From: Deltaproteobacteria bacterium | GTDB lineage: Bacteria > Myxococcota_A > UBA796 > JAFGLY01 | Direction: 5' to 3' | NCBI GenBank assembly: GCA_041309225.1 | Contig: JBFYZZ010000078.1 | Span: 1-62,731, forward strand | DNA length: 62,731 nt | Shown: positions 18,576-56,514 of the stretch, in pieces | Position numbering within the stretch: position 1 is the first letter of the stretch | How the letters are laid out: every line of letters starts with the position of its first letter | Program-made: the position numbers and the translations under genes | Notes under the pieces: model-generated | The model's database searches: none | Told to the model about the DNA's origin: nothing | The model's input: the letters and a program-made list of their open reading frames with translations, nothing else

Positions 18576-18860
18576 ATGAAGTACTGGCGTACTCCCCTGG
18601 ACCTGGACCACATCACGGTCCCCCGCGGCGAGGTCCACATCCTCGTCGAACGCTGCAAGGGGTGCGGCTTTTGCGTCGAGTACTGCCCCAAGGGGGTGCT
18701 GGCCATCTCCGAGGCGTTCAACCACAAGGGCTACCACCCCCCCGAGGTGGTGAAGCCCGAGGAGTGCGTGAACTGCAACCTGTGCGAGATGATCTGCCCG
18801 GACTTCGCGATCTACTCGGTGGCCCTCCCCCCGGCGCCGGCCACCGTCACGTTCCGGTAG
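18576..18860 (+). CDS. korD: 2-oxoacid:ferredoxin oxidoreductase delta subunit (2x[4Fe-4S] ferredoxin-like)
   Basis: ORF 18576..18860. Motifs CKGCGFCVEYCP and CVNCNLCEMICP. Sits directly upstream of the alpha, beta and gamma subunits (D-A-B-G/C order, as in oorDABC-type operons). Confidence 0.85.
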   Translation: MKYWRTPLDLDHITVPRGEVHILVERCKGCGFCVEYCPKGVLAISEAFNHKGYHPPEVVKPEECVNCNLCEMICPDFAIYSVALPPAPATVTFR

Positions 18861-18901
18861 CTGGGCCGCGCCGCCACGGCCGGCCCCGAGGAGGATGGTT
18901 C

Positions 18902-20059
18902 GTGTCCGCTGATCCTGCAGGAGTGCTCACCGGCGTCCACTACCTGGACGGCGACTTCGCCTGCGGCGAGGGCGCGATGGCTGCGGGGTGCCGGTTCGTG
19001 GCCGGCTACCCGATCACCCCGTCCACCGAGGTCGTGGAGCGCATCGGACGCCGATTCCCCATGATGGGGGGCGTCTTCATCCAGATGGAGGACGAGCTCG
19101 CCAGCATGGCGGCCATCGTCGGGGCGTCCTGGACCGGCACCAAGACGATGACGGTGACCAGCGGGCCGGGGTTCAGCCTGATGATGGAGAACATCGGCCT
19201 CGCCGCCATGATGGAGGCGCCCTGCGTCGTCGTGAACGTGCAGCGGGGCGGGCCCTCCACGGGCCTGCCCACCATGGTCGGCCAGGCCGACATGATGCAG
19301 GCACGCTGGGGATCCCACGGCGACTACCCCATCATCGCGCTCTGCCCGCAGTCCCCGCAGGAGGCCTTCGACCTCACGGTCGAAGCCTTCAACCTCGCTG
19401 AGACCTGGCGCACCCCGGTGCTCCTGCTCATGGACGAGTGCGTGGGCCACATGACCGAGAAGGTGGTCATCCCGCCCGCCGAGCGGATCCACGTGGTCAA
19501 GCGCAAGCTGACCGACAAAAAGCCCGAGGAGTACCGTCCCTTCGACGTGGGCGACGGCTGGGTGCCCGAGTTCGCGCGGGCGGGCGACGGGTACCGGTTC
19601 CACGTCACGGGCCTCACCCACGACGAGCGCGGGTACCCGAGCATGACCGTCGAGTGCCAGGCCACGGCGATCCGGCGGCTCGTGGACAAGATCCGGCGCA
19701 ATGCGGACCGCATCGTCCGGTTCGAGGAGGATGGCGTCGACGACGCCGACGTGGTCGTGGTCGCCTACGGCATCACAGCCCGCGTCGCGCGGATGGCGAT
19801 CGAGATGGCGCGGGCGCAGGGGGCCAGGGTCGGCTTCCTGCGCCTCGTCGTGGCGTGGCCGTTCCCGGAGGCGCGGATCCGGGAGCTGGCCGGCCGGGTC
19901 CGTGCCTTCGTGGTGCCCGAGATCAACCTCGGGCAGATGGCCCTCGAGGTCGAACGCTGCGCGGCCGGACAGGCGCGCACGTCGTGCGTCTCCCACGCCG
20001 GCGGCGGCGTGCACGACCCCGAGGAGATCTGCCGCGCGATCCTGGAGGCCGTCCGATGA
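18902..20059 (+). CDS. korA: 2-oxoacid:ferredoxin oxidoreductase alpha subunit
   Basis: Part of ORF 18662..20059. GTG 18902 follows GAGGAGGA. Motifs GEGAMAAGCRFVAGYPITPSTE and TSGPGFSLMMENIG. Confidence 0.85.
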   Translation: MSADPAGVLTGVHYLDGDFACGEGAMAAGCRFVAGYPITPSTEVVERIGRRFPMMGGVFIQMEDELASMAAIVGASWTGTKTMTVTSGPGFSLMMENIGLAAMMEAPCVVVNVQRGGPSTGLPTMVGQADMMQARWGSHGDYPIIALCPQSPQEAFDLTVEAFNLAETWRTPVLLLMDECVGHMTEKVVIPPAERIHVVKRKLTDKKPEEYRPFDVGDGWVPEFARAGDGYRFHVTGLTHDERGYPSMTVECQATAIRRLVDKIRRNADRIVRFEEDGVDDADVVVVAYGITARVARMAIEMARAQGARVGFLRLVVAWPFPEARIRELAGRVRAFVVPEINLGQMALEVERCAAGQARTSCVSHAGGGVHDPEEICRAILEAVR

Positions 20060-20946
20060 GCCCCGCTTCCGAGCAGCGTCCCGGCGAGGAGCAGCATCCC
20101 ATCACGCCCTACATCCGCATGGACCGGATGCCCCACATCTGGTGCCCCACCTGCGGCATCGGGACCGTCGTGAAGTGCTACGTCCAGGCGCTCCTCGAGG
20201 AGGAGATCGACCTCGACAAGGTGGCGGTCGTGTCGGGCATCGGCTGCACCGGCCGCGTGGCCGGCTACGTCAAGCTCGACTCCTTCCACTCCACGCACGG
20301 CCGCGCCATCCCCTTCGCCACGGGCCTCAAGCTCTGCCGGCCCGAGCTGCTGGTCACCGTGTTCTCGGGGGACGGCGACCTGGTCGGCATCGGCGGCAAC
20401 CACTTCATCCACGCCGCCCGCCGCAACCAGGATCTCCTCGTCATCCTGGTCAACAACTTCATCTATGGCATGACCGGCGGGCAGAACGCACCCACCACCC
20501 CGCTTGGAGCGAAGTCGTCGACCATGTCGTTCGGCAACTTCGAGCGTCCTTTCAGTCTGCCGCACCTCGCGGCGTCGTGCGGGGCCACCTACGTCGCCCG
20601 GTGGACGTCCCTCCACATCCGGCGCCTCACCCGGTCCTTCCGGGAGGCCAGCCGGCGCAGGGGCTTCCGGTTCATCGAGGTCATCGCGCCCTGCTCCACC
20701 CTGTACGCTCGCCTGAACAAGCTGGGCACGGGCTACGACCTCATGAAGTTCTACCACGACTACGCCGAGATTCGGAACGGGGCGGACACCCGGGAGCTGG
20801 ACATCGAGTTCCAGTCCCGGATCGTGTGCGGCAAGTTCGTCGACGTGGAGAAGCCCACCTACCAGCAGGCCATGGACGCCCACTACCGCAAGGCCCTGGG
20901 GTCCAGCTACGTGCCCATGAAGCCGGAGGGAGGGTGGCTGCCATGA
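20056..20946 (+). CDS. korB: 2-oxoacid:ferredoxin oxidoreductase beta subunit (TPP/[4Fe-4S])
   Basis: Part of ORF 19438..20946. ATGA overlap with the korA stop. Motifs WCPTCGIG, GIGCTGR and GDGDLVGIGGNHFIHAARRN (TPP-binding GDG). Confidence 0.85.
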   Translation: MSPASEQRPGEEQHPITPYIRMDRMPHIWCPTCGIGTVVKCYVQALLEEEIDLDKVAVVSGIGCTGRVAGYVKLDSFHSTHGRAIPFATGLKLCRPELLVTVFSGDGDLVGIGGNHFIHAARRNQDLLVILVNNFIYGMTGGQNAPTTPLGAKSSTMSFGNFERPFSLPHLAASCGATYVARWTSLHIRRLTRSFREASRRRGFRFIEVIAPCSTLYARLNKLGTGYDLMKFYHDYAEIRNGADTRELDIEFQSRIVCGKFVDVEKPTYQQAMDAHYRKALGSSYVPMKPEGGWLP

Positions 20947-21530
20947 ACCGGACCGAGATCCGCATCACGGGGTTCGGCGGCCAGGGCGTCGTCCTGTGCG
21001 GCTACGTCATCGGCCGTGCATGCGCCATCCAGGCGGGCCAGCACGCCACCATGATCCAGTCCTTCGGGCCCGAGGCCCGGGGCTCGTCGTGCAGCGCCAC
21101 CCTGGTCGTCTCCGACCAGCCCGTGCTGTACCCCTACATCCGCCACCCGGACATCTTCGTCGTGATGTCCAACGACGGCTACGAGAAGTACGCCTCCGAG
21201 CTCAAGGACGACGCGGTGATCGTGTACGAGCGGGATCTGGTCCACCCGGAGCCCCGGCCCGGCCAGCGGGCCTACGGCGTGCCCTCCACCCGCATCGCCG
21301 AGAAGCTGGGGCGGGCCCTCATCCAGAACATCGTGATGCTCGGCTTCTTCGGTGCCGTGACGCGCATCGTGCCCCGGGACGAGATGCGGGAGGCGGTCCG
21401 GAATTCGGTGCCCGCCGGCACCGAGGCGCTCAACCTGAAGGCGTTCGACGCCGGATGGGCCTGGTTCGACGAGCAATACGGCGCCGACGGGGCTCCAGCC
21501 GGTGCGGCGCGTTCCGCGACCACGGGGTGA
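20943..21530 (+). CDS. korG: 2-oxoacid:ferredoxin oxidoreductase gamma subunit
   Basis: Part of ORF 19701..21530. ATGA overlap with korB. N-terminus IRITGFGGQGVVLCG is typical of gamma subunits. Confidence 0.85.
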   Translation: MNRTEIRITGFGGQGVVLCGYVIGRACAIQAGQHATMIQSFGPEARGSSCSATLVVSDQPVLYPYIRHPDIFVVMSNDGYEKYASELKDDAVIVYERDLVHPEPRPGQRAYGVPSTRIAEKLGRALIQNIVMLGFFGAVTRIVPRDEMREAVRNSVPAGTEALNLKAFDAGWAWFDEQYGADGAPAGAARSATTG

Positions 21531-21533: not shown

Positions 21534-24500
21534 ATGACCACCGACGCTGCCCCTCCCCGCCGCGCCCTGGTGATCGGAGGCGGGATCGCGGGGATCCAGG
21601 CCGCCCTCGACCTCGCGAGCGCCCGGGTGCGCGTCACCCTGGTGGAGACGTCGCCGTCGCTGGGCGGGCGGATGGCCCAGCTGGACAAGACCTTCCCCAC
21701 CATGGACTGTGCGATATGAATCCTCGGCCCTAAGGCCATGGATGCCGGTCGGCATCCCCTCATCGACGTCGTCACCCACGCAGAGGTCGTCGCCTGCAGC
21801 GGCGAGCCGGGGGCGTTCCGGGTCCGGGTCCGGAAGCGGCCGCGCTACGTCCGGGAGGATCGCTGCGTGGCCTGCGGGCTCTGCGTGGTTGCGTGCCCGC
21901 AGGTGGGCGGCAACGAGTTCGACATGGGGATCAAGGCCCGGAAGGCCATCTACCGGCCGTTCCCGCAGTCCGTGCCCGCGACCTACGTGGTGGACCCGGA
22001 CGCCTGCCTCAACTTCCTCAACTTCCTGACCCCTCGCCAGCGCGATCGCCTCGAGCGCATCCGCTCGATCAAGGCCCGGAAGGACCCGGCGTACCGCACC
22101 GACTTCCTGGCCTGCGGCCACTGCTTGGCGGCCTGCGAGGTCCAGGCCATCGACTTCGACATGGCCCCCGAGGAGTTCGACCTCGACGTGGGCGCGATCC
22201 TCGTCGCCACGGGGTTCCAGGAGTTCGACGCCCGGGCGCTGCGCACCTACGGCTACGGCCGCCTGCCCAACGTGGTGACCAGCCTCGAGCTCGAGCGGAT
22301 GCTCAACGCCTCGGGCGTCACCCAGGGCCACGTGATCCGGCCCAGCGACGCCCGCACGCCCCGCCGGATGGTCTTCGTGCAGTGCGTGGGCGCCCGGGGC
22401 GAGGGGGGTCGTCCCTACTGCAGCCGGTTCTGCTGCATGAACGCCGTGAAGGACTCCCTTCTCGTGCGCCAGCACGATCCGGGGGTGGAGGAGGTCACCA
22501 TCCTCTACACGGACATGCGCGCCTTCGGGAAGGGGTTCGACGACTTCGTCGAGCGCGCCCGCCGCGAGCGGAGCGCCCGCTTCATCCGGGGCCGGCCGGC
22601 CACGATCCGCCACGACCCCACCGACGACACGCTCGAGGTCTTCGTGGAGGACACCCTCGCCCACGAGCCGATGCGGATCCGGGCCGATCTCGTGGTCCTC
22701 TCGGTGGCGGCGGCCCCCAACGAGGGCGCCGTGGAGCTGGCTCGGATGCTCGGGATCGAGACCGACGTCTACGGCTTCATCGCCCGCCTGGACCCCGCCG
22801 TCTCGGCGGTGGAGACCCGCCGCGAGGGGGTGTTCGTGGCCGGCAGCGCGGTCGGGCCGCAGGTCATCCCCGACTGCGTGGCCCAGGCCTCCGCCGCCGC
22901 CGCACGGGCCGCACGCTTCCTGGCCGCCGAGCGGGTCGAGGAGGACCGGACGCCCCCGCCTCCCCTGGATCTCTCGGGCCCTCCCCGCATCGGCGTCCTG
23001 GTCTGCCACTGCGGGGTCAACATCGCGGGCGTCCTCGACGTGAAGGCCCTGGCCGCCCATGCGGCTGCCCAGCCCGGGGTCGTGGTGGCGGTGGACGACG
23101 CCTTCGCCTGCTCCTCCACCGGCCAGGAGACGCTCGCAGCGCTCGTGGCCGAGCACCGGCTCAACCGCGTGGTGGTGGCGGCGTGCACGCCCCGCACCCA
23201 CGAGCCCGTCTTCCGGGAGACCTGCGCCCGGCTGGGCTTCAACCCCTACCTCCTGGAGATGGTCAACATCCGCGACCAGTGCTCCTGGGTCCACGCCGGC
23301 CACCCGGCCGAGGCCCAGGAGAAGGCCCGGGCGCTGCTCCGGATGGGCATCGCCCGCGCGCGCCACCTCGAGCCCCTCGAGCAGGGGCGGGCGCCGGTCA
23401 CGCGCCATGCGCTCGTCGTCGGCGGGGGCATCGCGGGCATCCAGGCGGCCACCGACCTCGCGGAGCAGGGCTTCCCGGTCACGCTCGTGGAAGCGGCCTC
23501 CCGGCTGGGCGGCCGACTCGCCGCCCCCCACCTGTGGCGGCTCTACCCCAACGACCGGGCGGCCTCCGAGGTCCTCGCCCGCAAGGTGGAGCGCCTCCAC
23601 GCGAGCGGGGCCCGGGTGCTCACCGGTACCGAAGTCACGGGGATCACGGGCTTCGTCGGCTCGTTCCAGGCCACGCTCCGGGGCGCGGAGGACGAGATCC
23701 TGCCCGTGGGGGTGGTCATCCTGGCCTTCGGGGCCGACCTCGCCGACCCCGGTGGAGCGTACGGCCACGGCCGGCTCCCCAACGTGATCACCAGCGAGGA
23801 CCTCGAGCGCGCGTTCCACGAGGGGGGGCCGCGCATCGACGGGGCCCTGCCCCGGAGCGCGGCCTTCGTGCTCTGCGTCGGCTCCCGGGAGGAGCACGGC
23901 TTCACCGGGTGCTCCCGGTACTGCTGTCCCACAGCCGTGAAGCAGGCCCTCGCGCTGGCCCGCCAGGGCGTGGACTGCACGGTGTTCTACCGAGACATCC
24001 GCACGGTCTCGTGGGGCACCGAAGAGATGTACCGCGAGGCCCGCGGCGCCGGCGTGCTGTTCGTGCGCATCCCGCCCGGCGAGCGTCCGCGGGTGCTGGG
24101 CGAAACCCGCGCCGAGCGGGTCCGCTGCCGCGACGACCTCCTGGGCCGGGAGATCGAGGTGCCGGCGGACCTCGTGGTGTTGAGCGTGGGGATGCGACCG
24201 CGCCAACCCGAGACCGCCCACTTCCACGACATCCTCAAGGTGAGCGTGGGCCTCGACGGGTTCTTCCTGGAGCGCCACCCGGAGCTGGCCCCGGTGGAGA
24301 CCGCCGTCGAGGGCGTCTTCCTGGCGGGCACCGTGCAGGGGCCGAAGGACCTCGTGGACACCGTGGCCCAGGCATCCGCCGCCGCGGCCAAGGCCTCCGT
24401 GCTGCTCGCCCACGACCAGATCCGGCTCGATCCGGCGGTGGCCGTGGTGGATCCCCTGAAGTGCCGCGGCTGCGGCCAGTGCGTCGAGATCTGCAGGTTC

Positions 24501-24683
24501 CAGGCCCCCTCCCTCAAGGAGATCGAGCCGGGCGCCTGGATCGCGGAGGTGAACGCCTCCCTGTGCAAGGGCTGCGGCACCTGCGCCTCGTGGTGCCCCT
24601 CCGGCGCCATCTCGGCCCGGCACTTCACGGAGCGCCAGATCGTCTCCATGGTGGACGCCCTCTTCGCGGAGGGATCGCGATGA
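21534..24683 (+). CDS. hdrA: HdrA-like flavoprotein, tandem two-unit form, selenocysteine-containing (UGA 21717..21719 recoded)
   Basis: ORFs 21534..21719 and 21738..24683 are in the same frame, separated only by TGA plus 6 sense codons. Read-through gives [22 protein letters not shown], colinear with FPTLDCAACILTPKMV in the Cys paralogues at 42824 and 48393. Two FAD Rossmann motifs ([32 protein letters not shown]). Internal HdrA N-domain Cys set ([10 protein letters not shown] / FACSSTG / VAACTP). Ferredoxin-type Cys clusters, including C-terminal [11 protein letters not shown] and [12 protein letters not shown]. Confidence 0.8.
21740..21757 (+). promoter_or_regulatory. SECIS-like hairpin (7-bp stem GGAUGCC/GGCAUCC, GGUC loop) downstream of UGA 21717
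   Basis: Perfect inverted repeat ggatgcc-ggtc-ggcatcc read directly. The loop starts 30 nt after the U of UGA. The identical element follows the second in-frame UGA at 26895. Confidence 0.5.
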
Positions 24684-25111
24684 CCGCCCCCGCCGCCACC
24701 TGGAACCCGCGCATCGTCGTCTTCGCCTGCAACTGGTGCTCCTACGCCGGTGCCGACACCGCGGGGGTCTCGCGCGTCCAGCACCAGCCCCACTTCCGGA
24801 TCATCCGGGTGATGTGCTCGGGCCGCATCCAGCCCTCCTTCGTGCTCCGTGCCTTCGAGAAGGGCGCCGACGGCGTCCTGGTGTCCGGGTGCCACATCGG
24901 CGACTGCCACTACCTGTTCGGGAACGAACGGGCGGTGGAGCAGTTCGAGAAGACCCGCGCCGTGACGCGCGTGCTCGGGCTGGAGGACGACCGGCTGCGC
25001 CTGGAGTGGATCTCCGCCGCCGAGGGCGCCCGGTTCGCCCAGGTCATCGACGAGTTCACCGACCGCGTGCGGGCCCTGGGCCCCAGCCCCCTGGCCGCGG
25101 AGGCTCCATGA
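24680..25111 (+). CDS. mvhD: MvhD-like [2Fe-2S] electron-transfer subunit
   Basis: Part of ORF 21893..25111. ATGA overlap with the hdrA stop. Motifs [29 protein letters not shown] and LEWISAAEG. Confidence 0.85.
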
Positions 25112-26280
25112 GCAGCGCCTGCCGCGAGCGCCTCTCTGCCATCGCCGCCCGGACCCGCGCCTGGGCCTGCTACGACTGCGGCAAGTGCACGGCCACCTGC
25201 CCCGTCACCCGGATCGGCGGGTCGCTCTCGCCCCGCCGCACGGTGCTCTCCACCCACCTCCCGCACGCCGACCCGGCCGTCCACTCCGCCGACCTCGCCT
25301 CCTGCCTCACGTGCCGCGCCTGCGACCTCCGGTGCCCGGTCCAGGTGGACTACACGGGCCTCGTCCGGGAGCTGCGCACCCTCGCCCACGAGGAGGGCGC
25401 CGAGCCCGAGTGCCCCCACGGCGGGGCCCTCCAGTCCCTCATGCGGATGATGGCGCGGGGCACCCAGCGCCAGCAGCGCCTCGGCTGGATCGGGAGCGAC
25501 CTCCGCACGGATCCGGCCCGGGGCCACGTGTTCCTCTGGACGGGCTGCACCGTCTACTACGACGCCTTCTTCCCCGAGTATGGCATGCGCACGCTCGACG
25601 GCACCCGCGCCGCCGTCCGCCTGCTCAACGCGCTCGGGGAGGTGCCGGTGGTCTCCCCCGAGGAGGCGTGCTGCGGCCACGACCTCCTCTGGAACGGCGA
25701 TCGGCCGTCGTTCGAGGCGCTCGCCCGCCGCAACGCCGCCCTCCTGCGCGCGAGCGGCGCGAGCGTGGTGGTCGCGCCCTGTGCCGAGTGCGCCCGCACC
25801 CTCCGCCTCGACTATGCGCCGTTCCTGGGCGCGGGCGCTCCGCGGATCCTGCACCTCTCCGAGTACCTCCTCGAGCGGATCGCCGAGCTCCCCCTCACCC
25901 GGCCGGAGGCCGTGCGGGTCACCTACCAGGATCCCTGCCGCCTGGGCCGCCACCTCGGCGTGGTGGACGCCCCGCGTCGCCTGCTCGAAGCCGTGCCGGG
26001 CCTGGAGCGGGTGGAGATGGCCCACCACGGCCGCAACGCCACCTGCTGCGCCGGCGGCACCTGGTCCGCGTGCGACCGGTACGCCAAGAAGCTCCAGGTC
26101 GAACGCCTCAAGGAAGCCCGGGCCACCGGCGCGACGATTCTCGTGACCGCCTGCCCCAAGTGCCAGATCCACTTCCGCTGCGCCCAGAAGGACCCCAACC
26201 TGGGCCAGGACATCGCCATCGAGATGCGGGACGTCGCCCAGGTGCTGGCCGACGCCCTCCGACCCCTGGAGGCTCCATGA
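25108..26280 (+). CDS. HdrC-HdrB fusion (HdrD-like) Fe-S/CCG-domain subunit
   Basis: Part of ORF 24736..26280, with ATGA overlap. N-terminal [12 protein letters not shown] and [12 protein letters not shown] (2x[4Fe-4S]). Cys-rich CCG-type segments follow ([32 protein letters not shown]). Confidence 0.8.
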
Positions 26281-30940: not shown

Positions 30941-31006
30941 CGCCGCGCCCTTCCCCCTGCCCCCGGTTTCCGGGTATCCTCCGGGTGACCCTTCCCGGAG
31001 GCTGCC

Positions 31007-31684: not shown

Positions 31685-31706
31685 CCATCGGGCGTCAATC
31701 CGATCG

Positions 31707-47736: not shown

Positions 47737-48231
47737 GTGCCGGGCGCGGTGATCCTGGGGGTGGGCAATCCCGTGCTCTCGGACGACGCCGTGGGCCTTG
47801 CGGTGGCCGGTCGCGTCCGGGAGATCCTGGGCGACGCGCCCGACGTCGCCGTGCGCGAGTCCGAGCGGGGCGGGCTCGACCTCGTCGAGCTCCTCGAGGG
47901 CGCCGACGTGGCGGTGGTGGTGGACGCCCTCCTCGATCCCGGACACCCGCCCGGGACCGTGCTGCCCCTGGACCTCGAGGAGGTCCGCACCACCACCCAC
48001 CTCCACGGCGCCCACGGCGTGGATCTCCCCACCGCCGTGTCCGTGGGGCGCCGGTTGGGGGTGGCCATGCCCGCCTCGGTCCGGATTGTGGGCGTGGTCG
48101 TGGAGGACGCCCTCACGCTGGGCGAGGGCCTCACGCCCGCCGTGGCCGCTGCGGTGGAGCCCGCGGCCCGCCTCGCCGTGGCGCTGGCCCGCCCCGGCGG
48201 GACCGGATCGACGCGCGCGCCGCGAAGCTGA
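47737..48231 (+). CDS. Hydrogenase maturation endopeptidase (HycI/HybD/FrhD family)
   Basis: ORF 47737..48231 (GTG start). Contains ILGVGNPVLSDDAVG. Sits directly after the large subunit. Confidence 0.8.
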   Translation: MPGAVILGVGNPVLSDDAVGLAVAGRVREILGDAPDVAVRESERGGLDLVELLEGADVAVVVDALLDPGHPPGTVLPLDLEEVRTTTHLHGAHGVDLPTAVSVGRRLGVAMPASVRIVGVVVEDALTLGEGLTPAVAAAVEPAARLAVALARPGGTGSTRAPRS

Positions 48232-48392: not shown

Positions 48393-50198
48393 GTGAGAAA
48401 AGCCGTCTTCTTCTGCCAGGTCGGCGACGAGACCCCGCTGAACGTGGACTCGGTCGCGAAGTACGCTTCCAACCTCCCGGGTGTGGAGCACGTGGAGGTG
48501 CTCGGCATCCGTCCGTCCCTGGACCCCACGCGGATCGCCGAGCGGATCCGGACCGTCCGGCTGGACCGGCTCGTGATCGCGGGCGACCAGCCCGGCTTCT
48601 TCAAGCCGGCCTTCACCCGCGCCATGGACCTCGCCAGCTGCTCGCCCCTGGAGGTCTTCCTCGCGCCCTTCGCGGCGTGGGGCGCCCCCGCCGAGGACGC
48701 CACCGAGCGGGCCAAGGCCATCGTGGCGTGCGCGTGCCAGGGCGTGCCCTTCACCCTGGCCGCCGTCCCGGCGTCCACGCCCGTCCACCCCGCCACCCTC
48801 GTCATCGGGGGCGGCGTGGCGGGGATCCAGGCGGCGCTCGAGATCGCCGACGCCGGCAAGCAGGTGCACCTCGTCGAGCGCACCGGCACGCTGGGCGGTC
48901 ACATGGCGATGTTCGACAAGACCTTCCCGACGCTCGACTGCGCGGCCTGCATCCTCACCCCCAAGATGGTGGCGGTGGGCCAGCACCCGATGATCAACCT
49001 CATGTCCTGGTCCGACGTGGAGGAGGTCTCGGGGACCCCCGGCGCCTACAAGGTCCGCATCCTACGGAAGGCCCGGAGGGTGGACGTCTCGGCCTGCGTG
49101 GCCTGCGGGATCTGCGCCGAGGTCTGCCCCGTGACCGTGCCGAGCGAGTTCGACGCCGGCATCTCCACGCGGAAGGCCGTGTACGTCCCCTTCCCCCAGG
49201 CGGTCCCGAACGCCTACCTGGTGGATCCGGCCTCCTGCACCTGGGTCCTGAGCGGGGGCCAGAAGTGTGGCGCCTGTGCGCGCAAGTGCCCCAAGGACTG
49301 CATCGACCTGAGCGAGAAGGACCGCGTAGAGGAGGTGGAGGTGGGGAGCATCATCCTGGCCACGGGCTACGAGGTCTTCGACGCGAAGCGGATCGAACGG
49401 TACGGCTACGGCGTCCTGCCCAACGTGCTCACGGCCCTCGAGTTCGAGCGGCTCACCAACGCGTCCGGGCCGACCGGCGGCCGCATCGTCACGCGCACGA
49501 AGCGGTACAACAAGCGCACCAAGCGGGACGAGTGGGTGTTCCAGGCCGACGGGCCCAGCCCGCGGAGCGTGGCCATCATCCACTGCGTCGGATCGCGGGA
49601 CAGCGCCTACAACGCATACTGCTCTCGCGTCTGCTGCATGTACTCCCTCAAGTTCGCCCACCTGGTGCGGGAGAAGCTGCCCGAGGCCGCGTGCTACGAG
49701 TTCTACATCGACATGCGGGCCTTCGGGAAGGGCTACGAGGAGTTCGCCGAGCGCATCAAGGCGGAGGGGACCCACGTGGTCCGGGGTCGCACCGCCTCGG
49801 TCCAGATGGTGGGGGAGGAGATGGTGGTCCGCGGTGAGGACATCCTCGAGGACCGCCTGCTCGAGTTCCCCGTGGACATGGTGATCCTCGCCGTGGGGCT
49901 CGTGCCGGCCTCGGGCACGGACGAGCTGGCGCGTACGCTCGAGGTGCAGCGCGATCCCGACGGCTGGTTCGCCGAATTCGACTACGACGGCAATCCCACC
50001 GAGACCCAGCGCGGGGGGGTGTACGTGGCCGGGATGTGCCAGGGCCCGAAGGACATCCCCGACACCGTGGCCCAGGCCTCGGCCGCCGCGGCCGGCGTCC
50101 TGAGGGCCATCTCCTCCGGGCGGGGCACCGGGTCCCTGTCCAGCCTCTCGCTGTCGGTCATCGAGGCGAGGGCCAGGACCCTCGCGCGGTCCACCTGA
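48393..50198 (+). CDS. HdrA/QmoA-like flavoprotein (keeps DCAAC motif, degenerate N-terminal Cys domain)
   Basis: Part of ORF 48300..50198, GTG 48393. [16 protein letters not shown] and FPTLDCAACILTPKMV present. The N-domain has lost 3 of its 4 Cys (FFCQVGDE / VLGIRPS / VIAGDQP). Ferredoxin motifs CVACGICAEVCP and CGACARKCP. Confidence 0.8.
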   Translation: MRKAVFFCQVGDETPLNVDSVAKYASNLPGVEHVEVLGIRPSLDPTRIAERIRTVRLDRLVIAGDQPGFFKPAFTRAMDLASCSPLEVFLAPFAAWGAPAEDATERAKAIVACACQGVPFTLAAVPASTPVHPATLVIGGGVAGIQAALEIADAGKQVHLVERTGTLGGHMAMFDKTFPTLDCAACILTPKMVAVGQHPMINLMSWSDVEEVSGTPGAYKVRILRKARRVDVSACVACGICAEVCPVTVPSEFDAGISTRKAVYVPFPQAVPNAYLVDPASCTWVLSGGQKCGACARKCPKDCIDLSEKDRVEEVEVGSIILATGYEVFDAKRIERYGYGVLPNVLTALEFERLTNASGPTGGRIVTRTKRYNKRTKRDEWVFQADGPSPRSVAIIHCVGSRDSAYNAYCSRVCCMYSLKFAHLVREKLPEAACYEFYIDMRAFGKGYEEFAERIKAEGTHVVRGRTASVQMVGEEMVVRGEDILEDRLLEFPVDMVILAVGLVPASGTDELARTLEVQRDPDGWFAEFDYDGNPTETQRGGVYVAGMCQGPKDIPDTVAQASAAAAGVLRAISSGRGTGSLSSLSLSVIEARARTLARST

Positions 50199-51368: not shown

Positions 51369-53093
51369 ATGCAGAGCTGCAAGATCGGCGTCTACATCTG
51401 CCAGTGCGGGACCAACATCGCCAAGATGGTCGACTGCGAGGCCCTGGTGGCGTTCGCGGAAACCCTTCCGGAGGTGGCCCTCGCCAAGACCTACAAGTAC
51501 ATGTGCTCCAACCCGGGTCAGGACATGATCGTCCAGGACATCCAGGCCAACGGGCTGGACCGGGTGGTGGTGGCGGCCTGCAGCCCCCGGATGCACGAGC
51601 GGACGTTCCGGAACGCGCTCCAGGTGGCGGGCCTGAACCCGTACTTCTTCGAGATGGCCAACATCCGGGAGCACTGCTCCTGGGTCCACGACGACCCGGT
51701 GGCGGCCACCCAGAAGGCCAAGGCCCTCGTGCGGGGCGCCGTGCTCCGGGTGGCTCGGCACGAGGCGCTCGAGCGCAAGACCGTGGACATGTGCCCCGAG
51801 GTGCTCGTCATCGGGGGCGGGATCGCCGGCCTCACCGCTGCCCTCGACATCGCCGACGCCGGCCACCGCGTGCACCTGGTCGAGCGGCAGGGCTCGCTGG
51901 GGGGGAACCTCGCGCGGATCGACCTCACCGCACCCTTCCTCAACGCGGCGCGGGACCTCCTCACGGAGCGCATCACCCGGGTCACCGAGAGCGAACGGAT
52001 CGACGTGATGCTCCACTCCCGGGTGGTGAACCTCGATGGGTTCATCGGGAACTACCGGGCCACGGTGGAGGTCCGCGACGCCGACGGCCTGCCACGAAAG
52101 ACCGAGTTCCTCGTCGGCAACGTGATCGTCGCCACCGGCTACCAGGAGTTCGAGGCCAGCCGGATCACCCACTACGGGTACGGCAAGCTCCCCAACGTGG
52201 TCACCTCGTTCGAGTTCGAGCTGATGCTCCGCCACGGGCGGATCCAGATGGCGGACGGCCACCTCCCCCGGTTCGTGAGCATCATCCACTGCGTGGGCAG
52301 CCGCAGCCAGGAGTTCCATGGCTACTGCTCCCGCGTCTGCTGCATGACCGCCCTGAAGTACGCCCACGAGGTCCGGTCCGCCATCCCCGGCTGCCACGTG
52401 TCCGACATCTACATCGACATGCATGCGTTCGGGAAGGGCCACGAGGACTTCTACCGAAGGTCGTCCGAGGTGAAGACCCTGTTCCTCATGTACCGGAAGG
52501 GGGACCGGCCGGTCATCCGCCGGGCGGATCCGGGCGACACCTGCGACATGCTGATCGAGGTGAACGAGCAGCTCTCCGGCGAGACCATCGAGATCCCGGC
52601 CGACCTGGTGGTCCTCATGGTGGGGATGGAGGCCCGCTCCGACGCCCACGAGGTGGCCCGCCTCGTGAACATCAGCCAGGACAAGGAGGGCTGGTTCATC
52701 GAGAGCCATCCCAAGCTCGACCCGGTGGCCACCACCACCGACGGCGTCTACATCGCGGGCACCTGCGCGGCGCCCAAGGACATCCCCGACAACGTGGCCC
52801 AGGCCCGGGCGTCGGCCGCCCGGATCCTGGCCAAGGTGGCGCGGGGCAGGATCGAGGTGGACGCCGTGTACGCCGAGGTGGACGAGGCCCGCTGCTCGGG
52901 CTGCCGCATCTGCAACGACCTGTGCCCCTACAGCGCCATCGAGTTCGACGCCGTCAAGAAGGTCAGCCGCGTCATCAGCGCGGTGTGCAAGGCCTGCGGG
53001 GCCTGCGGGGCGGCCTGCCCGTCCGGCGCCATCAAGGCGCGCCACTTCACCGACGCCCAGATCTTCGCCCAGATCGAGGGGGTACTGCTATGA
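51369..53093 (+). CDS. HdrA/QmoB-like flavoprotein (intact N-terminal Cys domain, lacks the DCxxC motif)
   Basis: Part of ORF 50739..53093. Motifs ICQCGTNIA / YMCSNPG / VAACSP and [16 protein letters not shown]. The DCxxC position reads GGNLARIDLTAPF. C-terminal motifs CSGCRICNDLCP and CKACGACGAACP. Confidence 0.8.
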   Translation: MQSCKIGVYICQCGTNIAKMVDCEALVAFAETLPEVALAKTYKYMCSNPGQDMIVQDIQANGLDRVVVAACSPRMHERTFRNALQVAGLNPYFFEMANIREHCSWVHDDPVAATQKAKALVRGAVLRVARHEALERKTVDMCPEVLVIGGGIAGLTAALDIADAGHRVHLVERQGSLGGNLARIDLTAPFLNAARDLLTERITRVTESERIDVMLHSRVVNLDGFIGNYRATVEVRDADGLPRKTEFLVGNVIVATGYQEFEASRITHYGYGKLPNVVTSFEFELMLRHGRIQMADGHLPRFVSIIHCVGSRSQEFHGYCSRVCCMTALKYAHEVRSAIPGCHVSDIYIDMHAFGKGHEDFYRRSSEVKTLFLMYRKGDRPVIRRADPGDTCDMLIEVNEQLSGETIEIPADLVVLMVGMEARSDAHEVARLVNISQDKEGWFIESHPKLDPVATTTDGVYIAGTCAAPKDIPDNVAQARASAARILAKVARGRIEVDAVYAEVDEARCSGCRICNDLCPYSAIEFDAVKKVSRVISAVCKACGACGAACPSGAIKARHFTDAQIFAQIEGVLL

Positions 53094-53524
53094 GCTTCGA
53101 GCCCAGGATCGTCGGCTTCCTGTGCAACTGGTGCTCGTACACGGGAGCCGACCTCGCCGGCACGAGCCGCATCCACTACCCGCCGAACGTCCACATCATC
53201 CGGGTGATGTGCTCGGCCCGCATCGATCCCACCTTCGTGCTCAAGGCGCTCGCCCAGGGGGCCGACGGGGTGCTCGTGTGCGGCTGCCACCCGGGCGACT
53301 GCCACTACACCGACGGCAACTACAAGGCCATGCGGCGCTTCCCGCTCCTCAAGCGGGTGCTCGACGCCTACGGCCTGGAGAAGGACCGCGTGCGCCTGGA
53401 GTGGGTCAGCGCGAGCGAGGGGCAGCGGTTCGCCGACGTGGTGAGCGACATGACCGAGCGGATCCGCCCGCTGGGGCCGTGCCGCATCCGTCCCGGCTTG
53501 CAGGCCGACATGGCCGAGAGGTGA
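53090..53524 (+). CDS. mvhD: MvhD-like [2Fe-2S] subunit
   Basis: Part of ORF 51404..53524, with ATGA overlap. Motifs LCNWCSYTGADLAG, VMCSAR, VCGCHPGDCHY and LEWVSASEG. Confidence 0.85.
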   Translation: MSFEPRIVGFLCNWCSYTGADLAGTSRIHYPPNVHIIRVMCSARIDPTFVLKALAQGADGVLVCGCHPGDCHYTDGNYKAMRRFPLLKRVLDAYGLEKDRVRLEWVSASEGQRFADVVSDMTERIRPLGPCRIRPGLQADMAER

Positions 53525-53527: not shown

Positions 53528-54496
53528 ATGAGTGAGACGAAAAAGCTCCAGATCGCCCTCTACTGGGGCGCCGCCTGCGGTGGCTGCGACGTGGCGGTCC
53601 TCGACACCGACGCATTCATCCTGGACGTGGCCGCGCTGGCCGACATCCGCCTCTGGCCCATCGCTGTGGACGGCAAGTACGCCGACATCGAGGCGCTGGC
53701 GGACGGCGAGCTCGACGTCGCGTTCTTCAACGGCGCGGTCCGGAACAGCGAGAACGAGCACATCGCCCGCCTCCTCAGGCAGAAGAGCCGGATCCTGGTG
53801 GCCTTCGGATCCTGCGCCCACCTGGGCGGCATCCCCGGCCTGGCCAACTTCTTCACACGCGACGAGATCATCCGCACTGCCTACCTCGACAACCCGTCCA
53901 TCGAGCCGGGCAACCGGACGGTCCCCACCCCCGAGACGCGTGTGAACGGCCACACGCTCGACATCCCGAAGTTCTACCAGCGAGTCTTCCCGCTCGAAGC
54001 GGTGGTCCCGGTCGACTACTTCCTTCCGGGCTGCCCGCCGGCCCCCGACCAGGTCCGGGCGGCCATCCTGGCCATCGCCACCGGCAACCTCCCGGCGCGC
54101 GGCTCGGTGGTGGGCGCCTCCGAGCGGGCCGTGTGCGAGGACTGCAAGCGGGAGAAGAGCGAGAAGAAGATCGGGCGGTTCTACCGGCCGTGGGAGATCA
54201 TCCAGGATCCGACGAAGTGCCTCCTCGAGCAGGGCATCGTCTGCCTGGGGCCGGCCACGCGCTCGGGCTGTGGGGTGCGCTGCCCGAACACGGGGCAGGG
54301 CTGTCGGGGCTGCTACGGACCCCTTCCCGGCGTCGTGGACCAGGGGGCCAAGGTGATCTCCTCCCTGGCCTCCGTCATCGACAGCCGGGATCCCGAGGAG
54401 ATCGAACGGATTCTGGACGGAATCCCGGATTTCACGGCCATCGCCTACCGCTTCGGACTCCCCGCTTCGCTGCTCCAGAGGAGGATTCGGGCATGA
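53528..54496 (+). CDS. mvhG: [NiFe] hydrogenase small subunit (second Mvh/group-3c-like copy)
   Basis: ORF 53528..54496. Motifs LYWGAACGGCDVAVLD, AFGSCAHLGGIP and GCPP. C-terminal clusters CEDCKREK, CLLEQGIVCLGPATRSGCGVRC and CRGCYGP. Confidence 0.85.
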   Translation: MSETKKLQIALYWGAACGGCDVAVLDTDAFILDVAALADIRLWPIAVDGKYADIEALADGELDVAFFNGAVRNSENEHIARLLRQKSRILVAFGSCAHLGGIPGLANFFTRDEIIRTAYLDNPSIEPGNRTVPTPETRVNGHTLDIPKFYQRVFPLEAVVPVDYFLPGCPPAPDQVRAAILAIATGNLPARGSVVGASERAVCEDCKREKSEKKIGRFYRPWEIIQDPTKCLLEQGIVCLGPATRSGCGVRCPNTGQGCRGCYGPLPGVVDQGAKVISSLASVIDSRDPEEIERILDGIPDFTAIAYRFGLPASLLQRRIRA

Positions 54497-55959
54497 CCCG
54501 GACCATCAGCATCGACCCGATCACCCGCCTCGAGGGGCACGGCAAGATCGAGATCTTCCTCGACGACGAGGGTGCCGTCGAGGACTGCTACTTCCAGATC
54601 CCGGAGCTGAGGGGCTTCGAGCGGTTCGTGGTGGGCCGTCCCCTCGAGGAGCTGCCCCGCATCGTCACGCGCATCTGCGGTGTCTGCCCCGCCAGCCACC
54701 ACATGGCCAGCGCCAAGGCCGTGGACGCCTGCTTCGGCGACGAGTGCCCCCCCGTGGCCCACAAGCTGCGGGACATGTACTACCACGCCCACTACATCCA
54801 CAGTCACATCGCCCACTTCTACGCCCTCGCCGCCCCCGACTTCGTCTGCGGACCCGACGCCGATCCCGCGATCCGGAACATCCTCGGCGTGGTGGCGAAG
54901 GTGGGGCTCGAGATCGGCGGCCGCGTGATCCAGGCGCGGTCTCTCGCCCAGCGGATCCAGGCCATCCTGGGCGGGCGGACCACCCACCTGGTCTGGTGCC
55001 TCCCCGGAGGCGTGGCCAAGGGACTCTCCGCCCAGGAGCTGGAGGAGATCAAGCCCATGGTGAAGGAGCTCGGCGCCTTCGCCGACTTCTCCCTCCACCT
55101 CTTCCGCCAGGTCGTGTTGGGCAACGCCCAGTACGTGGACCTCATCCTGAACGGCCCCTACACGCTCGACGTGCACAACATGGGGCTCGTGGACCGCGAC
55201 CTGGCGGTCACGTTCTACGACGGGGACGTCCGGGTCGTGGACTTCCTGGGCCGGGAGATCTGCCGCTACCCGCCCCGGGCCTACGCCGAGCACGTGGCGG
55301 AGCACGTCGAGCCCTGGTCCTACCTCAAGTTCCCCTACCTGAAGAAGCGTGGATGGAAGGGGTTCACGGAGGGCCTGGACTCCAGCCTCTACTGCGCCAC
55401 GCCGCTCTCGCGCCTCAACGTGGCCGAGCGCATGGCCACGCCGCGCGCCCAGGAGGCCCGGGAGGAGATGTACGCCACGCTCGGCGGGCGTCCCTGCCGC
55501 GCCCTCCTCGCCAACCACTGGGCCCGGCTCGTGGAGATGGTGCAGAACGCCGAGATGCTGGAGCGGTACTGCGCGGACCCCGAGATCACGAGCGACCGGT
55601 TCCGCGTGGTGCCCAGCCGCATCACCGGGGAGGGCGTGGGGATCGTCGAGGCCATGCGCGGGACGCTCACGCACCACTACACCTGCGACGAGAACGGCAT
55701 CTGCACCAGCGCGAACCTGATCGTGGGGACCACCAACAACAACGGGCCGATCCACATGGTCACGAAGAAGGTGGCCCAGGCCATGATCCAGCCCGGGAAG
55801 GACCCCGATCCGGCGATCCTCAACATGATCGAGATGGCCTTCCGGGCGTTCGATCCTTGCTTCTCGTGCGCGACCCATAGCCTTCCCGGACAGATGCCGC
55901 TCGAGGTCCAGGTCTGGAAGGGCGGCGAGCGGACCTGGCACGCGAAGCGCGGCCCCTAG
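54493..55959 (+). CDS. mvhA: [NiFe] hydrogenase large subunit (second Mvh/group-3c-like copy)
   Basis: Part of ORF 54133..55959, with ATGA overlap. Motifs [18 protein letters not shown] and DPCFSCATH. 488 aa, the same length as the first copy. Confidence 0.9.
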   Translation: MTRTISIDPITRLEGHGKIEIFLDDEGAVEDCYFQIPELRGFERFVVGRPLEELPRIVTRICGVCPASHHMASAKAVDACFGDECPPVAHKLRDMYYHAHYIHSHIAHFYALAAPDFVCGPDADPAIRNILGVVAKVGLEIGGRVIQARSLAQRIQAILGGRTTHLVWCLPGGVAKGLSAQELEEIKPMVKELGAFADFSLHLFRQVVLGNAQYVDLILNGPYTLDVHNMGLVDRDLAVTFYDGDVRVVDFLGREICRYPPRAYAEHVAEHVEPWSYLKFPYLKKRGWKGFTEGLDSSLYCATPLSRLNVAERMATPRAQEAREEMYATLGGRPCRALLANHWARLVEMVQNAEMLERYCADPEITSDRFRVVPSRITGEGVGIVEAMRGTLTHHYTCDENGICTSANLIVGTTNNNGPIHMVTKKVAQAMIQPGKDPDPAILNMIEMAFRAFDPCFSCATHSLPGQMPLEVQVWKGGERTWHAKRGP

Positions 55960-55965
55960 GACGCC

Positions 55966-56514
55966 ATGCCCGACAGCCGCCCGCCGCGCATCCTCGTCCT
56001 CGGCATGGGCAACCCCATCCTCTCGGACGACGCGGTGGGCATCCGCCTCGCACGCGCGATGGGCGCCCGGTGGGGGGCCCGACCCGACCTGGACGTGGTG
56101 GAGGAGTGTTCGGTGGGCGGCCTCGAGATCCTGGACGTCCTGGGCGGGTACGACCGCGTGGTGGTGCTCGACGCCATTCGCACGCGGGGCGGGATACCGG
56201 GCGCCTGGTACCGGTTCACCGCAGAGGCACTCCGGGAGACCCGCAACCTGCGCAACGTCCACGACGTCAACTTCGCCACGGCACTCGCCCTGGGCCGCGC
56301 CCTCGGCCTCCATCTGCCCCCCGACGACGAGATCCACGTGTTCGCCGTCGAGATCGAAGACGACCTCACCTTCTCCGAGCGCATGACCGAGGCGCTCGAG
56401 GCTGCCTGGTCACGGTTCTCCAGCGAGATCCTGACCGCCGCCCGCGATCTCATGGAGCCCGGGGCTCCCCACCCGAAGGAGGCCGACCATGGCCCATGTA
56501 CTCCTGGTCGATGA
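55966..56514 (+). CDS. Hydrogenase maturation endopeptidase (second copy)
   Basis: ORF 55966..56514. Contains ILVLGMGNPILSDDAVG. The 3' end overlaps the next gene by 26 nt. Confidence 0.8.
   Translation: MPDSRPPRILVLGMGNPILSDDAVGIRLARAMGARWGARPDLDVVEECSVGGLEILDVLGGYDRVVVLDAIRTRGGIPGAWYRFTAEALRETRNLRNVHDVNFATALALGRALGLHLPPDDEIHVFAVEIEDDLTFSERMTEALEAAWSRFSSEILTAARDLMEPGAPHPKEADHGPCTPGR

Follow-up and report, generated by a model that had tools for sequence, protein, structure and literature searches.

Strict anaerobes obtain their low-potential electrons through flavin-based electron bifurcation at HdrA. To our knowledge, few HdrA complexes have been characterized outside methanogens, and most bacterial HdrA modules have no known acceptor. 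We analyzed the 62,731-nt contig JBFYZZ010000078.1 of a Deltaproteobacteria bacterium (assembly GCA_041309225.1), hereafter the window, in which positions 18576 to 56514 carry many genes for Hdr and Mvh-type hydrogenase subunits together with a 2-oxoacid:ferredoxin oxidoreductase (OFOR). A preliminary description had viewed these genes as one supercluster of four modules. The genes named there are present, but our results point to three operons, designated A, B1, and B2 (Table 1), placed near each other. We consider it reasonably probable that these are separate, evolutionarily conserved units on a bacterial chromosome, each encoding a bifurcating (or confurcating) complex centered on HdrA.

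Gene content and conservation of the operons

At about 72% G+C, the window yields a mechanical list of open reading frames (ORFs) that is mostly noise. Genes were called from the signal of G+C at third codon positions (GC3) and from maps of in-frame stops, followed by translation, and their identities were checked with Pfam, NCBIfam, and PDB sequence searches. These searches confirmed all 23 genes of the preliminary description at their coordinates and bore out its view that they are of the Hdr/Mvh type. Its inventory stands as well: five HdrA-type genes, four MvhD/FlpD units (one being the C terminus of the hdrA2D product), two fusions of Fer4 with two CCG domains (hdrCB1 and hdrCB2), one hdrC and one hdrB, a single gene for a QmoC-like protein, two pairs of mvhG and mvhA with a HycI-type protease gene after each, and one four-subunit OFOR. 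Since the first HdrA gene encodes a fused double HdrA, the window holds six HdrA units. The dicluster Fer4 domain of HdrC is found in HdrC3, the HdrC of operon B1, and in the N termini of the fusions, and paired CCG domains occur in HdrB3, HdrCB1, and HdrCB2. The OFOR is complete, with alpha, beta, gamma, and delta domains all present; the alpha subunit is the only one to pass its NCBIfam cutoff.

Table 1. Features of the window discussed in the text
Unit	Feature	Coordinates	Strand	Basis
A	korD, OFOR delta, 2x[4Fe-4S]	18576..18860	+	Pfam Fer4; NCBIfam OGOR_delta and OorD, below cutoff
A	korA, OFOR alpha	18902..20059	+	Pfam POR_N + PFOR_II; NCBIfam NF006412, 569 bits (cutoff 411)
A	korB, OFOR beta, thiamine pyrophosphate binding	20056..20946	+	Pfam TPP_enzyme_C; best NCBIfam match 2-oxoglutarate/2-oxoacid ferredoxin oxidoreductase beta, below cutoff
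A	korG, OFOR gamma	20943..21530	+	Pfam POR; NCBIfam PRK08537, 192 bits (cutoff 235)
A	hdrA1, 1049-aa fused HdrA dimer, BamE-like, predicted selenoprotein	21534..24683	+	Alignment to HdrA 5odc_A
A	In-frame TGA of hdrA1	21717-21719		Single in-frame TGA
A	Hairpin in hdrA1	21741-21756		
A	mvhD1, [2Fe-2S] adaptor, 143 aa	24680..25111	+	Pfam FlpD, E = 6e-52
A	hdrCB1, HdrD-like, 2 cubane motifs + 2 CCG	25108..26280	+	Pfam Fer4_17 + CCG x2; best NCBIfam matches HdrD-like parts of TfrB and LdhH
A	hdrA2D, full-length HdrA fused to MvhD, predicted selenoprotein	26277..28739	+	Pfam FlpD, residues 669-784, + HdrA domains
A	In-frame TGA of hdrA2D	26895-26897		Single in-frame TGA
A	Hairpin in hdrA2D	26919-26934		
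A	Zn-ribbon ORF, 57 aa, CxxC...CxxC	28743..28916	+	Translation; conserved position
A	hdrCB2, HdrC-HdrB fusion	28913..30325	+	Pfam Fer4_8 + CCG x2; TIGR03288 HdrB, 263 bits (cutoff 345); PDB HdrB 8rvu_b, 226 bits, and HdrC, 82 bits
Between A and B1	GNAT acetyltransferase	30353..30940	+	Pfam Acetyltransf_1
Between A and B1	Predicted lipoprotein with tandem repeat (repeat 31087-31361)	31007-31684	+	
Between A and B1	Secreted TIG/Kelch-repeat protein, 1183 aa	34492-38043	+	Pfam
Between A and B1	Ig-like (HYDIN/ASH) lipoprotein	38711-40264	+	
B1	hdrC	41414..41956	+	Pfam Fer4_8/17; TIGR03290, 99.6 bits (cutoff 160); alternative start 41375 gives a 193-aa product, as called on MAG contig L001
B1	hdrB (HdrB3), two CCG domains	41953..42819	+	Pfam CCG x2; TIGR03288, 190 bits, below cutoff
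B1	hdrA3, canonical full-length HdrA, Cys-Cys at CxxC	42824..44818	+	NCBIfam HdrA2/HdrA, residues 3-661, 792 bits, below cutoff
B1	mvhD3	44827..45279	+	Pfam FlpD, E = 1e-50
B1	mvhG1, [NiFe] small subunit	45282..46244	+	Pfam Oxidored_q6; NCBIfam VhuG, 220 bits (cutoff 450)
B1	mvhA1, [NiFe] large subunit, group 3c-like	46267..47733	+	Pfam NiFeSe_Hases; best PDB match 5odc_F
B1	Maturation endopeptidase	47737..48231	+	Pfam HycI; TIGR00072, 95 bits (cutoff 47)
B2	Inverted repeat, candidate operator	48275-48300		
B2	hdrA4, half-function HdrA	48393..50198	+	Pfam, NCBIfam, alignment
B2	QmoC-like membrane subunit, 383 aa	50206..51357	+	NCBIfam qmoC NF038018
B2	hdrA5, complementary half-function HdrA	51369..53093	+	NCBIfam matches in two stretches; alignment
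B2	mvhD4	53090..53524	+	Pfam FlpD, E = 2e-56
B2	mvhG2	53528..54496	+	Pfam Oxidored_q6
B2	mvhA2	54493..55959	+	Pfam NiFeSe_Hases; NCBIfam VhuA, below cutoff
B2	Maturation endopeptidase	55966..56514	+	Pfam HycI
After B2	Stand-alone response-regulator receiver	56489-56881	+	

To assess the conservation of operon A, we fetched 80 metagenome loci with an HdrA1 profile, each with 10-kb flanks, and mapped all window proteins onto them; the counts for the kor, mvhD, and hdr genes are relative to the loci with enough flanking DNA on the relevant side. The korD-A-B genes lie upstream of hdrA1 in 48/48 loci, mvhD and hdrCB1 lie downstream of it in 52/53, and hdrA2D and hdrCB2 are present in 37/38 and 30/30, respectively. 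A 57-aa Zn-ribbon ORF that the earlier list did not include keeps the same place in 38 of these loci and in loci L003 and L004 (Zn_ribbon_8 in Pfam), with best matches of 64 to 76% identity. The nine junctions of the operon in the window comprise five 4-nt overlaps, three 3-nt gaps, and a 41-nt spacing between korD and korA. The same order recurs in a closed Phycisphaerales genome and in a metagenome-assembled genome (MAG) of Acidobacteriota, where the first HdrCB protein measures 380 aa and hdrCB2 is either intact or replaced by split hdrC/hdrB genes. Operon A is therefore a single conserved ten-gene operon with a near-invariant order, found in Planctomycetota and Acidobacteriota among others. 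Because this order is conserved across the 80 loci, what had been listed as a separate OFOR and two Hdr modules is one operon, of which the OFOR is an invariant part. The GNAT gene that starts 27 nt after hdrCB2 has homologs near operon A in only 12 of the 80 loci and in L003, upstream in some and downstream in others; it may be accessory or regulatory and is not a core gene. At nine loci, second, divergent OFOR sets that are 33 to 66% identical to the window kor genes lie within 10 kb of operon A.

The QmoC-like protein of B2 belongs to a family of more than 2000 proteins at E ≤1e-10, the 119 best of which are 60 to 72% identical to it. Among GTDB species representatives, we confirmed 597 QmoC-type loci (the best match being 68% identical to the window protein) and examined the best 80 of them with 10-kb flanks. 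The window order hdrA4-qmoC-hdrA5-mvhD-mvhG-mvhA(-protease) occurs in 24 of these 80, with carriers in Acidobacteriota, Latescibacterota, Aminicenantes, Actinomycetota/Thermoleophilia, Holophagae, Chrysiogenota, and others. A permuted order, mvhDGA-hdrA4-qmoC-hdrA5, occurs in 16 loci labeled Bacteroidales, Bacteroidetes, Lentimicrobiaceae, Rikenellaceae, Cytophagales, or Cyclobacteriaceae; another 12 have the hdrA4-qmoC-hdrA5 triad and no hydrogenase in the fetched DNA, and 19 are canonical qmoABC-like or other. In the one B2 context listed in full (L167), hypABFCD genes follow the operon and there are no apr or dsr genes. Dozens of unrelated contigs share these gene orders, so the clustering within each operon is far beyond chance. 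By the same token, the cluster is less exceptional than it had been called: each operon is common in metagenomes and in MAGs of many phyla, and non-methanogens with many Hdr paralogs have been on record since Desulfobacterium autotrophicum (PMC2702500).

The arrangement of the three operons relative to each other is a different matter. The 38 kb are not a continuous run of Hdr/Mvh genes. From 30353 to 41116, Pfam shows unrelated genes for the GNAT protein, a lipoprotein with repeats, a sigma54 regulator, a histidine kinase, the TIG/Kelch surface protein, and others; three of these genes lie on the minus strand. The proximity of A, B1, and B2 may thus have no functional meaning, the operons being independent units brought together by chance or in a landing zone for gene transfer, and we see the chances of this as even. 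It is favored by the 11 kb of unrelated genes (30.9 to 41.1 kb), some on the minus strand, that part A from B1; by the absence of kor or hdrA1 within 10 kb in all 80 QmoC-centered loci and of mvhA or qmoC within 10 kb in all 80 HdrA1-centered loci; and by the identity of each operon to copies in other phyla (60 to 85%), which suggests separate lateral histories. Copies from other organisms in general are mostly 55 to 85% identical to those of the window, which suggests mobility. Against it, flanks of 10 kb are too short to show a window-like arrangement of A and B, modules of the B1 and B2 types adjoin each other in no fewer than four of the loci, and the ferredoxin pool would be common to all three operons.

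The paralogs themselves are old. The two MvhA copies had been estimated by eye at about two-thirds identity; the measured value is 56%, and the conclusion that they are not recent copies holds. Other paralog pairs that clearly align are only 39 to 62% identical, which is why we place their divergence far back.

Scans of both clusters for sigma70 promoters and intrinsic terminators gave nothing above the shuffled expectation. The sigma54 promoter consensus matched at 39 sites where 43.5 were expected, which gives no indication that the sigma54 regulator encoded between A and B1 governs the operons. In the same interval, most of the predicted lipoprotein with repeats is encoded by some 23 tandem copies of a 12-nt unit that translate to (D-T/A-D-A)n. 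The large TIG/Kelch-repeat gene, first guessed to be a fused OFOR, was ruled out as such by its Pfam domains; it and the HYDIN/ASH lipoprotein gene are also found upstream of the B operons on MAG contig L001.

Selenocysteine codons and HdrA architecture

Both HdrA genes of operon A contain one in-frame TGA, a feature absent from the preliminary description, which in hdrA1 corresponds to position 62 (U62). The codon is embedded in the motif DC(A/S)I-U-ILGPK and aligns with Cys197 of the C194-x-x-C197 pair of Methanothermobacter wolfeii HdrA (5odc_A). The site thus reads C-A-I-U or C-S-I-U in the operon A proteins, versus C-A-A-C in HdrA3 and HdrA4 and C-S-I-C in the M. wolfeii enzyme. In the structure of Methanococcus maripaludis HdrA, this position is Sec197, and a bridge between cysteine and selenocysteine (Sec) has been proposed to act as an electron relay (PMC13518236). 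All 138 operon A HdrA sites collected have TGA, while Cys-type HdrA genes (CAAC-ILTPK) use TGC or TGT.

Downstream of each TGA, beginning after 21 nt, lies the hairpin GAUGCC-GGUC-GGCAUC, with a 6-bp stem and a GGUC loop. A set of 116 unique sequences shows covariation at one stem pair (C-G in 106, U-A in 8, and U-G in 2); third codon positions are invariant or nearly so inside the hairpin and vary freely in its flanks. The hairpin is absent from 64/64 sites with a Cys codon, taken from the QmoC-centered loci and the window. Folding energy alone did not set the two regions downstream of TGA apart from shuffled sequences (z = -1.0 and -0.75); the case for a Sec insertion sequence (SECIS) relies instead on conservation and covariation. 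Together, these patterns are strong evidence that hdrA1 and hdrA2D encode selenoproteins, with a predicted bacterial SECIS in each gene. An ARAGORN and Rfam (gathering threshold) scan found no RNA genes in the window, hence no tRNA-Sec there.

The Sec codon has consequences for annotation. A search with HdrA1 returned about 8000 homologs; the 119 best matches besides the window's own are 69 to 74% identical over 92 to 94% of the query and measure 956 to 1160 aa, mostly about 981 to 985, and the homologs among the best matches listed start just after the same internal TGA. In the Phycisphaerales and Acidobacteriota annotations, hdrA1 appears as two products, an N-terminal fragment of 66 to 70 aa and a second of about 983 aa; the HdrA-MvhD fusion of L003 is also split at the Sec codon, into products of 202 and 546 aa. 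Since gene callers truncate both operon A HdrAs at this codon, the family is hidden in databases: public protein sets show short N-terminal fragments and truncated proteins that reach about 980 aa at most. This matters for the annotation of MAGs.

HdrA1 aligns to M. wolfeii HdrA in four stretches in permuted order. Its N-terminal half has the C-x-x-C/U pair (C59-x-x-U62), the inserted ferredoxin domain, and the flavin-contacting Lys, and lacks the N-terminal cluster domain and the C-terminal ferredoxin domain. Its C-terminal half has the reverse complement of parts: the two latter domains are present, the pair and the inserted ferredoxin domain are absent, and the Lys is replaced by Trp. Both halves keep the CSRxCC cluster (CSRFCC and CSRYCC, respectively), and the whole protein contains seven [4Fe-4S] motifs. 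A similar division is seen in B2 between separate genes. HdrA4 keeps the CxxC pair, the inserted ferredoxin domain, and CSRVCC, has an N-terminal domain without cysteines, and lacks the C-terminal ferredoxin domain; HdrA5 retains the Cys cluster at its N terminus and the ferredoxin domain at its C terminus and lacks the CxxC pair and the inserted ferredoxin domain. As this split mirrors the one between the HdrA1 halves, HdrA4 and HdrA5 point to an obligate heterodimer. HdrA3 and HdrA2D are complete canonical HdrAs with all domains and cysteine motifs. The NCBIfam HdrA2 model is the best match for the four window HdrAs scanned. We regard the gene identities, domain architectures, Sec decoding signals, and operon conservation as established.

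A minority of the operon A loci (L003, L131, and L142) have a gene for an HdrL-like Sec-type protein between hdrA1 and mvhD. In L003 (13090-17598), it encodes a 1425-aa fusion of a GltD-like protein and HdrA, interrupted by the same Sec-type TGA. The insertion is a hint that NAD(P)H serves these lineages as a donor.

Proposed electron flow and alternative explanations

From these genes we infer complex formation, the direction of electron flow, and all substrates. For operon A, the closest guide is the class II benzoyl-CoA reductase (BCRII). According to its cryo-electron microscopy structure (10.64898/2026.04.10.717634), BamE consists of two fused HdrA units whose domains are permuted, and it has a Cys59-Cys62 pair and clusters E1 to E7. 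The bifurcating FAD lies in its N-terminal TrxR unit, and the second FAD is nonbifurcating. BamF serves as an adaptor of the MvhD type; BamD, which resembles HdrBC/HdrD, is the high-potential exit, and its electrons go to ETF and not to a heterodisulfide; and the catalytic BamBC docks on the inserted ferredoxin domain of BamE (10.64898/2026.04.10.717634). By analogy, operon A would build a selenium-dependent complex organized like BCRII. The bifurcating flavin would lie in the fused, BamE-like HdrA dimer, the high-potential electron would be taken by the HdrD-like protein in the manner of BamD, and the OFOR would stand in place of BamBC on the low-potential branch, where it may drive, or be driven by, a couple of 2-oxoacid with acyl-CoA plus CO2 without free ferredoxin. 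The second pair, HdrA-MvhD and HdrCB, could act as a coupled second redox module.

A quite possible alternative, although not the one we favor, is that operon A works oxidatively. The OFOR would then be the input, and 2-oxoacid oxidation (about -500 mV) would feed the HdrA flavins directly; the electrons might be confurcated with those of a thiol or other higher-potential donor, or split to disulfide-type acceptors at the two CCG proteins, and the operon might serve the catabolism of amino acids or organic acids instead of CO2 fixation. The named carriers are Phycisphaerae, Thermoanaerobaculales, Holophagae, and Sulfomarinibacteraceae, which are mostly regarded as anaerobic heterotrophs, and four-subunit OFORs of the Kor/Vor type are commonly oxidative. 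In addition, extra OFOR paralog sets often adjoin operon A, which has no other obvious module for electron input. Yet in the BCRII analog the catalytic module sits at the inserted ferredoxin domain, as the low-potential acceptor, and passing electrons of -500 mV onto disulfides would waste energy unless coupled to something outside the operon. Moreover, where an HdrL-like protein with a GltD-type NAD(P)H domain is inserted, a donor of mid potential would be available.

Both window MvhA proteins carry the nickel-binding motifs L1 (xICGxCxxxH) and L2 (DPCxxCATH) as defined previously (PMC6085437); the L2 motif of MvhA1 is DPCFGCATH, and those of MvhA2 are RICGVCPASH and DPCFSCATH. The best PDB match of MvhA1 is the MvhA subunit 5odc_F (388 bits), followed by Vhu and related proteins, with group 1 hydrogenases below 140 bits, and genes for MvhG (Oxidored_q6) and MvhD (FlpD) lie directly upstream of both mvhA genes. 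With scores of 375 and 366 bits, the two MvhA proteins miss the NCBIfam VhuA equivalog cutoff of 800 and are, judging from these matches, relatives of the methanogen enzymes and not equivalogs. By its domain content, B1 is a canonical hdrCBA-mvhDGA-protease operon, the apparent bacterial version of the methanogen Mvh-Hdr complex. Arrangements of this type are known from other non-methanogens (PMC6085437, PMC2702500). MvhAG would oxidize H2 and send electrons via MvhD to the HdrA flavin, where they would be split, one going to ferredoxin and the other via HdrC to the two noncubane clusters of HdrB, which would reduce a disulfide or similar acceptor. No genes for coenzyme M or coenzyme B were found in the 62.7-kb window.

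In B2, the hydrogenase input would be the same as in B1. The HdrA homodimer would be replaced by a heterodimer of complementary, partly degenerate HdrAs, and HdrBC by a QmoC with two [4Fe-4S] clusters and a heme b-type anchor. The QmoC-like protein matches NF038018 over its full length (176.6 bits against a cutoff of 300), and alignment and hydropathy show two CxxCxxCxxxC motifs comprising eight invariant Cys and at least four hydrophobic segments with many invariant His. Because a predicted membrane QmoC stands in for HdrBC, we expect the acceptor to be a quinone, and the high-potential electron most likely goes to menaquinone. The net reaction would be H2 + quinone + oxidized ferredoxin -> quinol + reduced ferredoxin. 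The acceptors of four CCG units had been described as unknown; this is largely still so, except that one of the modules has no CCG protein at all and its QmoC anchor points to quinone.

Two features border B2. The 161 nt that precede hdrA4 contain a perfect inverted repeat, CACTGTGT-N10-ACACAGTG, which overlaps a TTGACA hexamer; the repeat is unique in the window, with 0 expected by chance, and could be an operator for B2. At the other end, the stand-alone receiver gene overlaps the end of the protease gene by 26 nt, as it does on MAG contig L002, and may regulate B2 or be cotranscribed with it.

Could B2 instead be an ordinary QmoABC of sulfate reduction or sulfur oxidation, exchanging electrons between menaquinol and APS reductase, with the hydrogenase as a mere neighbor? 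Its QmoC is 55 to 59% identical to the QmoC of six loci with the canonical qmoA-qmoB-qmoC order, and a hydrogenase has itself been put forward as a candidate partner for confurcation with Qmo (PMC3333476). We nevertheless find this improbable. The window contains no apr, sat, or dsr genes, the HdrAs on either side of the QmoC fit HdrA models and not a distinct Qmo type, and the order is A-C-B with a separate MvhD. Furthermore, mvhDGA is directly attached in 40/80 loci, those of Bacteroidales and Thermoleophilia included, and the L167 context has hyp genes and no apr/dsr. Finally, "type II" Qmo, which is nearer to HdrA and has a function recorded as unknown, is known to occur without Apr/Dsr (PMC10504309).

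Several observations weigh against the electron paths we propose. None of the Hdr/Mvh subunits reaches an NCBIfam equivalog cutoff, so inferring substrates from the methanogen enzymes is weak. HdrB3 scores nearly as well with the SdhE-type quinone-linked anchor (NF042965, 171 bits) as with HdrB (TIGR03288, 190 bits), both below cutoff, and B1 may therefore not use a disulfide either. An AlphaFold2 model of the QmoC-like protein (pLDDT 71.7) had no Foldseek match in the PDB with E <1, which leaves the NarI/HdrE-type domain without fold support and makes the heme b assignment a sequence-based one. In operon A, MvhD1 is a short canonical MvhD, in contrast to the long, Sec-containing BamF, and the comparison of HdrA1 with BamE is made at the domain level, from the description of BamE rather than sequence to sequence. 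No mid-potential input module (hydrogenase, formate dehydrogenase, or NAD(P)H-binding subunit) is recognizable in operon A, so its OFOR could be the input rather than the output.

The host is a bacterium and not a methanogen or an anaerobic methanotrophic archaeon (ANME), in agreement with the preliminary description, which saw no sign of a methanogen. The same contig encodes a sigma54 enhancer-binding response regulator, histidine kinases and two-component systems, a tricorn protease, RNase HII, sulfatases, and an FHA-GAF-cyclase; G+C content (68 to 77%) and the GC3 frame signal are even across the window; and the B operons have the same bacterial neighbors on two further NCBI MAG contigs. 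The tricorn protease is 83% identical to that of a "Deltaproteobacteria bacterium" MAG (GCA_016927815.1), the next matches being about 70% identical and labeled Acidobacteria, and this MAG shares with the window (4400-17253) the order tricorn-RNaseHII-ADH-sulfatase-sulfatase-korDAB. Because this upstream block is syntenic, the position of operon A appears conserved in this lineage. Given the bacterial neighbors, uniform composition, and MAG synteny, a methanogen/ANME origin or a chimeric assembly is very unlikely. That archaeal DNA was joined to bacterial DNA by assembly or binning, or that the TGA-interrupted hdrA genes are pseudogenes, is suggested by the fame of Hdr/Mvh in methanogens and by the splitting of both genes by gene callers, but we dismiss it as extremely improbable given that bacterial genes also interrupt the clusters, that the organism-labeled homologs among the best matches listed are all bacterial, and that frame and conservation continue on both sides of a TGA that is universal at its site and followed by a covarying hairpin.

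What may be new here is limited to two operon types. Hdr/Mvh genes in non-methanogens, multiple Hdr paralogs, and Sec-containing HdrA are established, and the density of the window is only mildly surprising. Interest lies in types A (OFOR with a BamE-like HdrA) and B2 (QmoC-anchored Mvh-HdrA), both very widespread. We found no description or characterization of a kor-hdr or Qmo-Mvh operon in the literature covered, which did not extend to the main review of HdrA modules (Appel et al. 2021), so a prior description is possible. Tentatively, and with considerable doubt, operon A might represent an undescribed enzyme class, in which a selenium-dependent BamE-type HdrA and a second module are hard-wired to an OFOR so that bifurcation drives reductive carboxylation or its reverse without free ferredoxin, and B2 might be the first H2:quinone/ferredoxin-bifurcating hydrogenase. 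If an OFOR is indeed hard-linked to a BamE-like HdrA, the principle of a catalytic module plugged into a bifurcating HdrA would extend from BCRII to central carbon metabolism; operon A itself is spread among uncultured anaerobes of sediments, Planctomycetota and Acidobacteriota included. Through a hydrogenase-HdrA complex whose membrane anchor faces the quinone, bacteria of soils and sediments would connect H2 and ferredoxin with their quinone pool.

Relation to known systems

The nearest precedent for a non-methanogen rich in such genes is D. autotrophicum HRM2, which has 15 Hdr paralogs at nine loci, some with Sec (PMC2702500). Both organisms have many HdrA, HdrD, and MvhD paralogs, a Sec-containing HdrA, and mvhADG clustered with hdrA. 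In HRM2, the paralogs are spread over the nine loci, and the kor-linked fused-dimer and QmoC-Mvh operons are not among the arrangements described in the passages covered (PMC2702500).

With the MvhADG-HdrABC complex of methanogens (Methanothermococcus/Methanothermobacter; 5odc, 8rvu), B1 shares all six subunits and the protease in one operon, an HdrA3 with all domains and cysteine motifs, both CCG motifs in HdrB3, and an MvhA1 whose nearest solved relative is 5odc_F. The Sec position of HdrA1 and HdrA2D is likewise that of Cys197/Sec197 in archaeal HdrA. Unlike the methanogen systems, those of the window have a bacterial host, subunits that all score below equivalog cutoffs, and hydrogenases with Cys rather than Sec, and CoM-S-S-CoB is not expected as the substrate. 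The second module of operon A resembles HdrA2B2C2 of Methanosarcina acetivorans (PMC5296606) and bacterial HdrA-MvhD fusions in that HdrA carries a C-terminal MvhD and has HdrC plus HdrB as its partner, here fused. It differs in its Sec and its place in an OFOR operon, and F420 is not expected as a donor in this host.

Similar to QmoABC, including "type II" (PMC10504309, PMC3333476), B2 combines two HdrA-derived flavoproteins with a QmoC-like protein predicted to join an HdrC-like Fe-S domain to a membrane domain of the cytochrome b type; as in type II Qmo, its flavoproteins are closer to HdrA than to classical QmoA/B. In contrast to QmoABC, the order is A-C-B, MvhD is a separate gene and not a domain of QmoB, the QmoC score is below the family cutoff, and the MvhGA hydrogenase and its protease are part of the same operon.

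Lastly, operon A is matched by description with BamDEF of BCRII (Geobacter metallireducens BamB-I). It has korDABG in place of the tungsten-containing BamBC, lacks BamGHI, and adds a second HdrA-MvhD/HdrCB pair and a Zn-ribbon protein; no tungsten AOR-type BamBC or NuoEFG/HydBC-like BamGHI was found in the window or in the 80 syntenic loci. Its Sec is in HdrA1 (U62) and not in the adaptor, and HdrCB1 differs from the BamD module in having both CCG cysteine motifs complete. Yet the two systems share a fused, permuted HdrA dimer with an N-terminal TrxR unit that holds the 59/62 pair and the inserted ferredoxin domain, a degenerate second unit in which the pair is missing and the flavin-contacting Lys is replaced, seven cluster motifs, and BamE-, BamF-, and BamD-like genes in a row (hdrA1, mvhD1, and hdrCB1).

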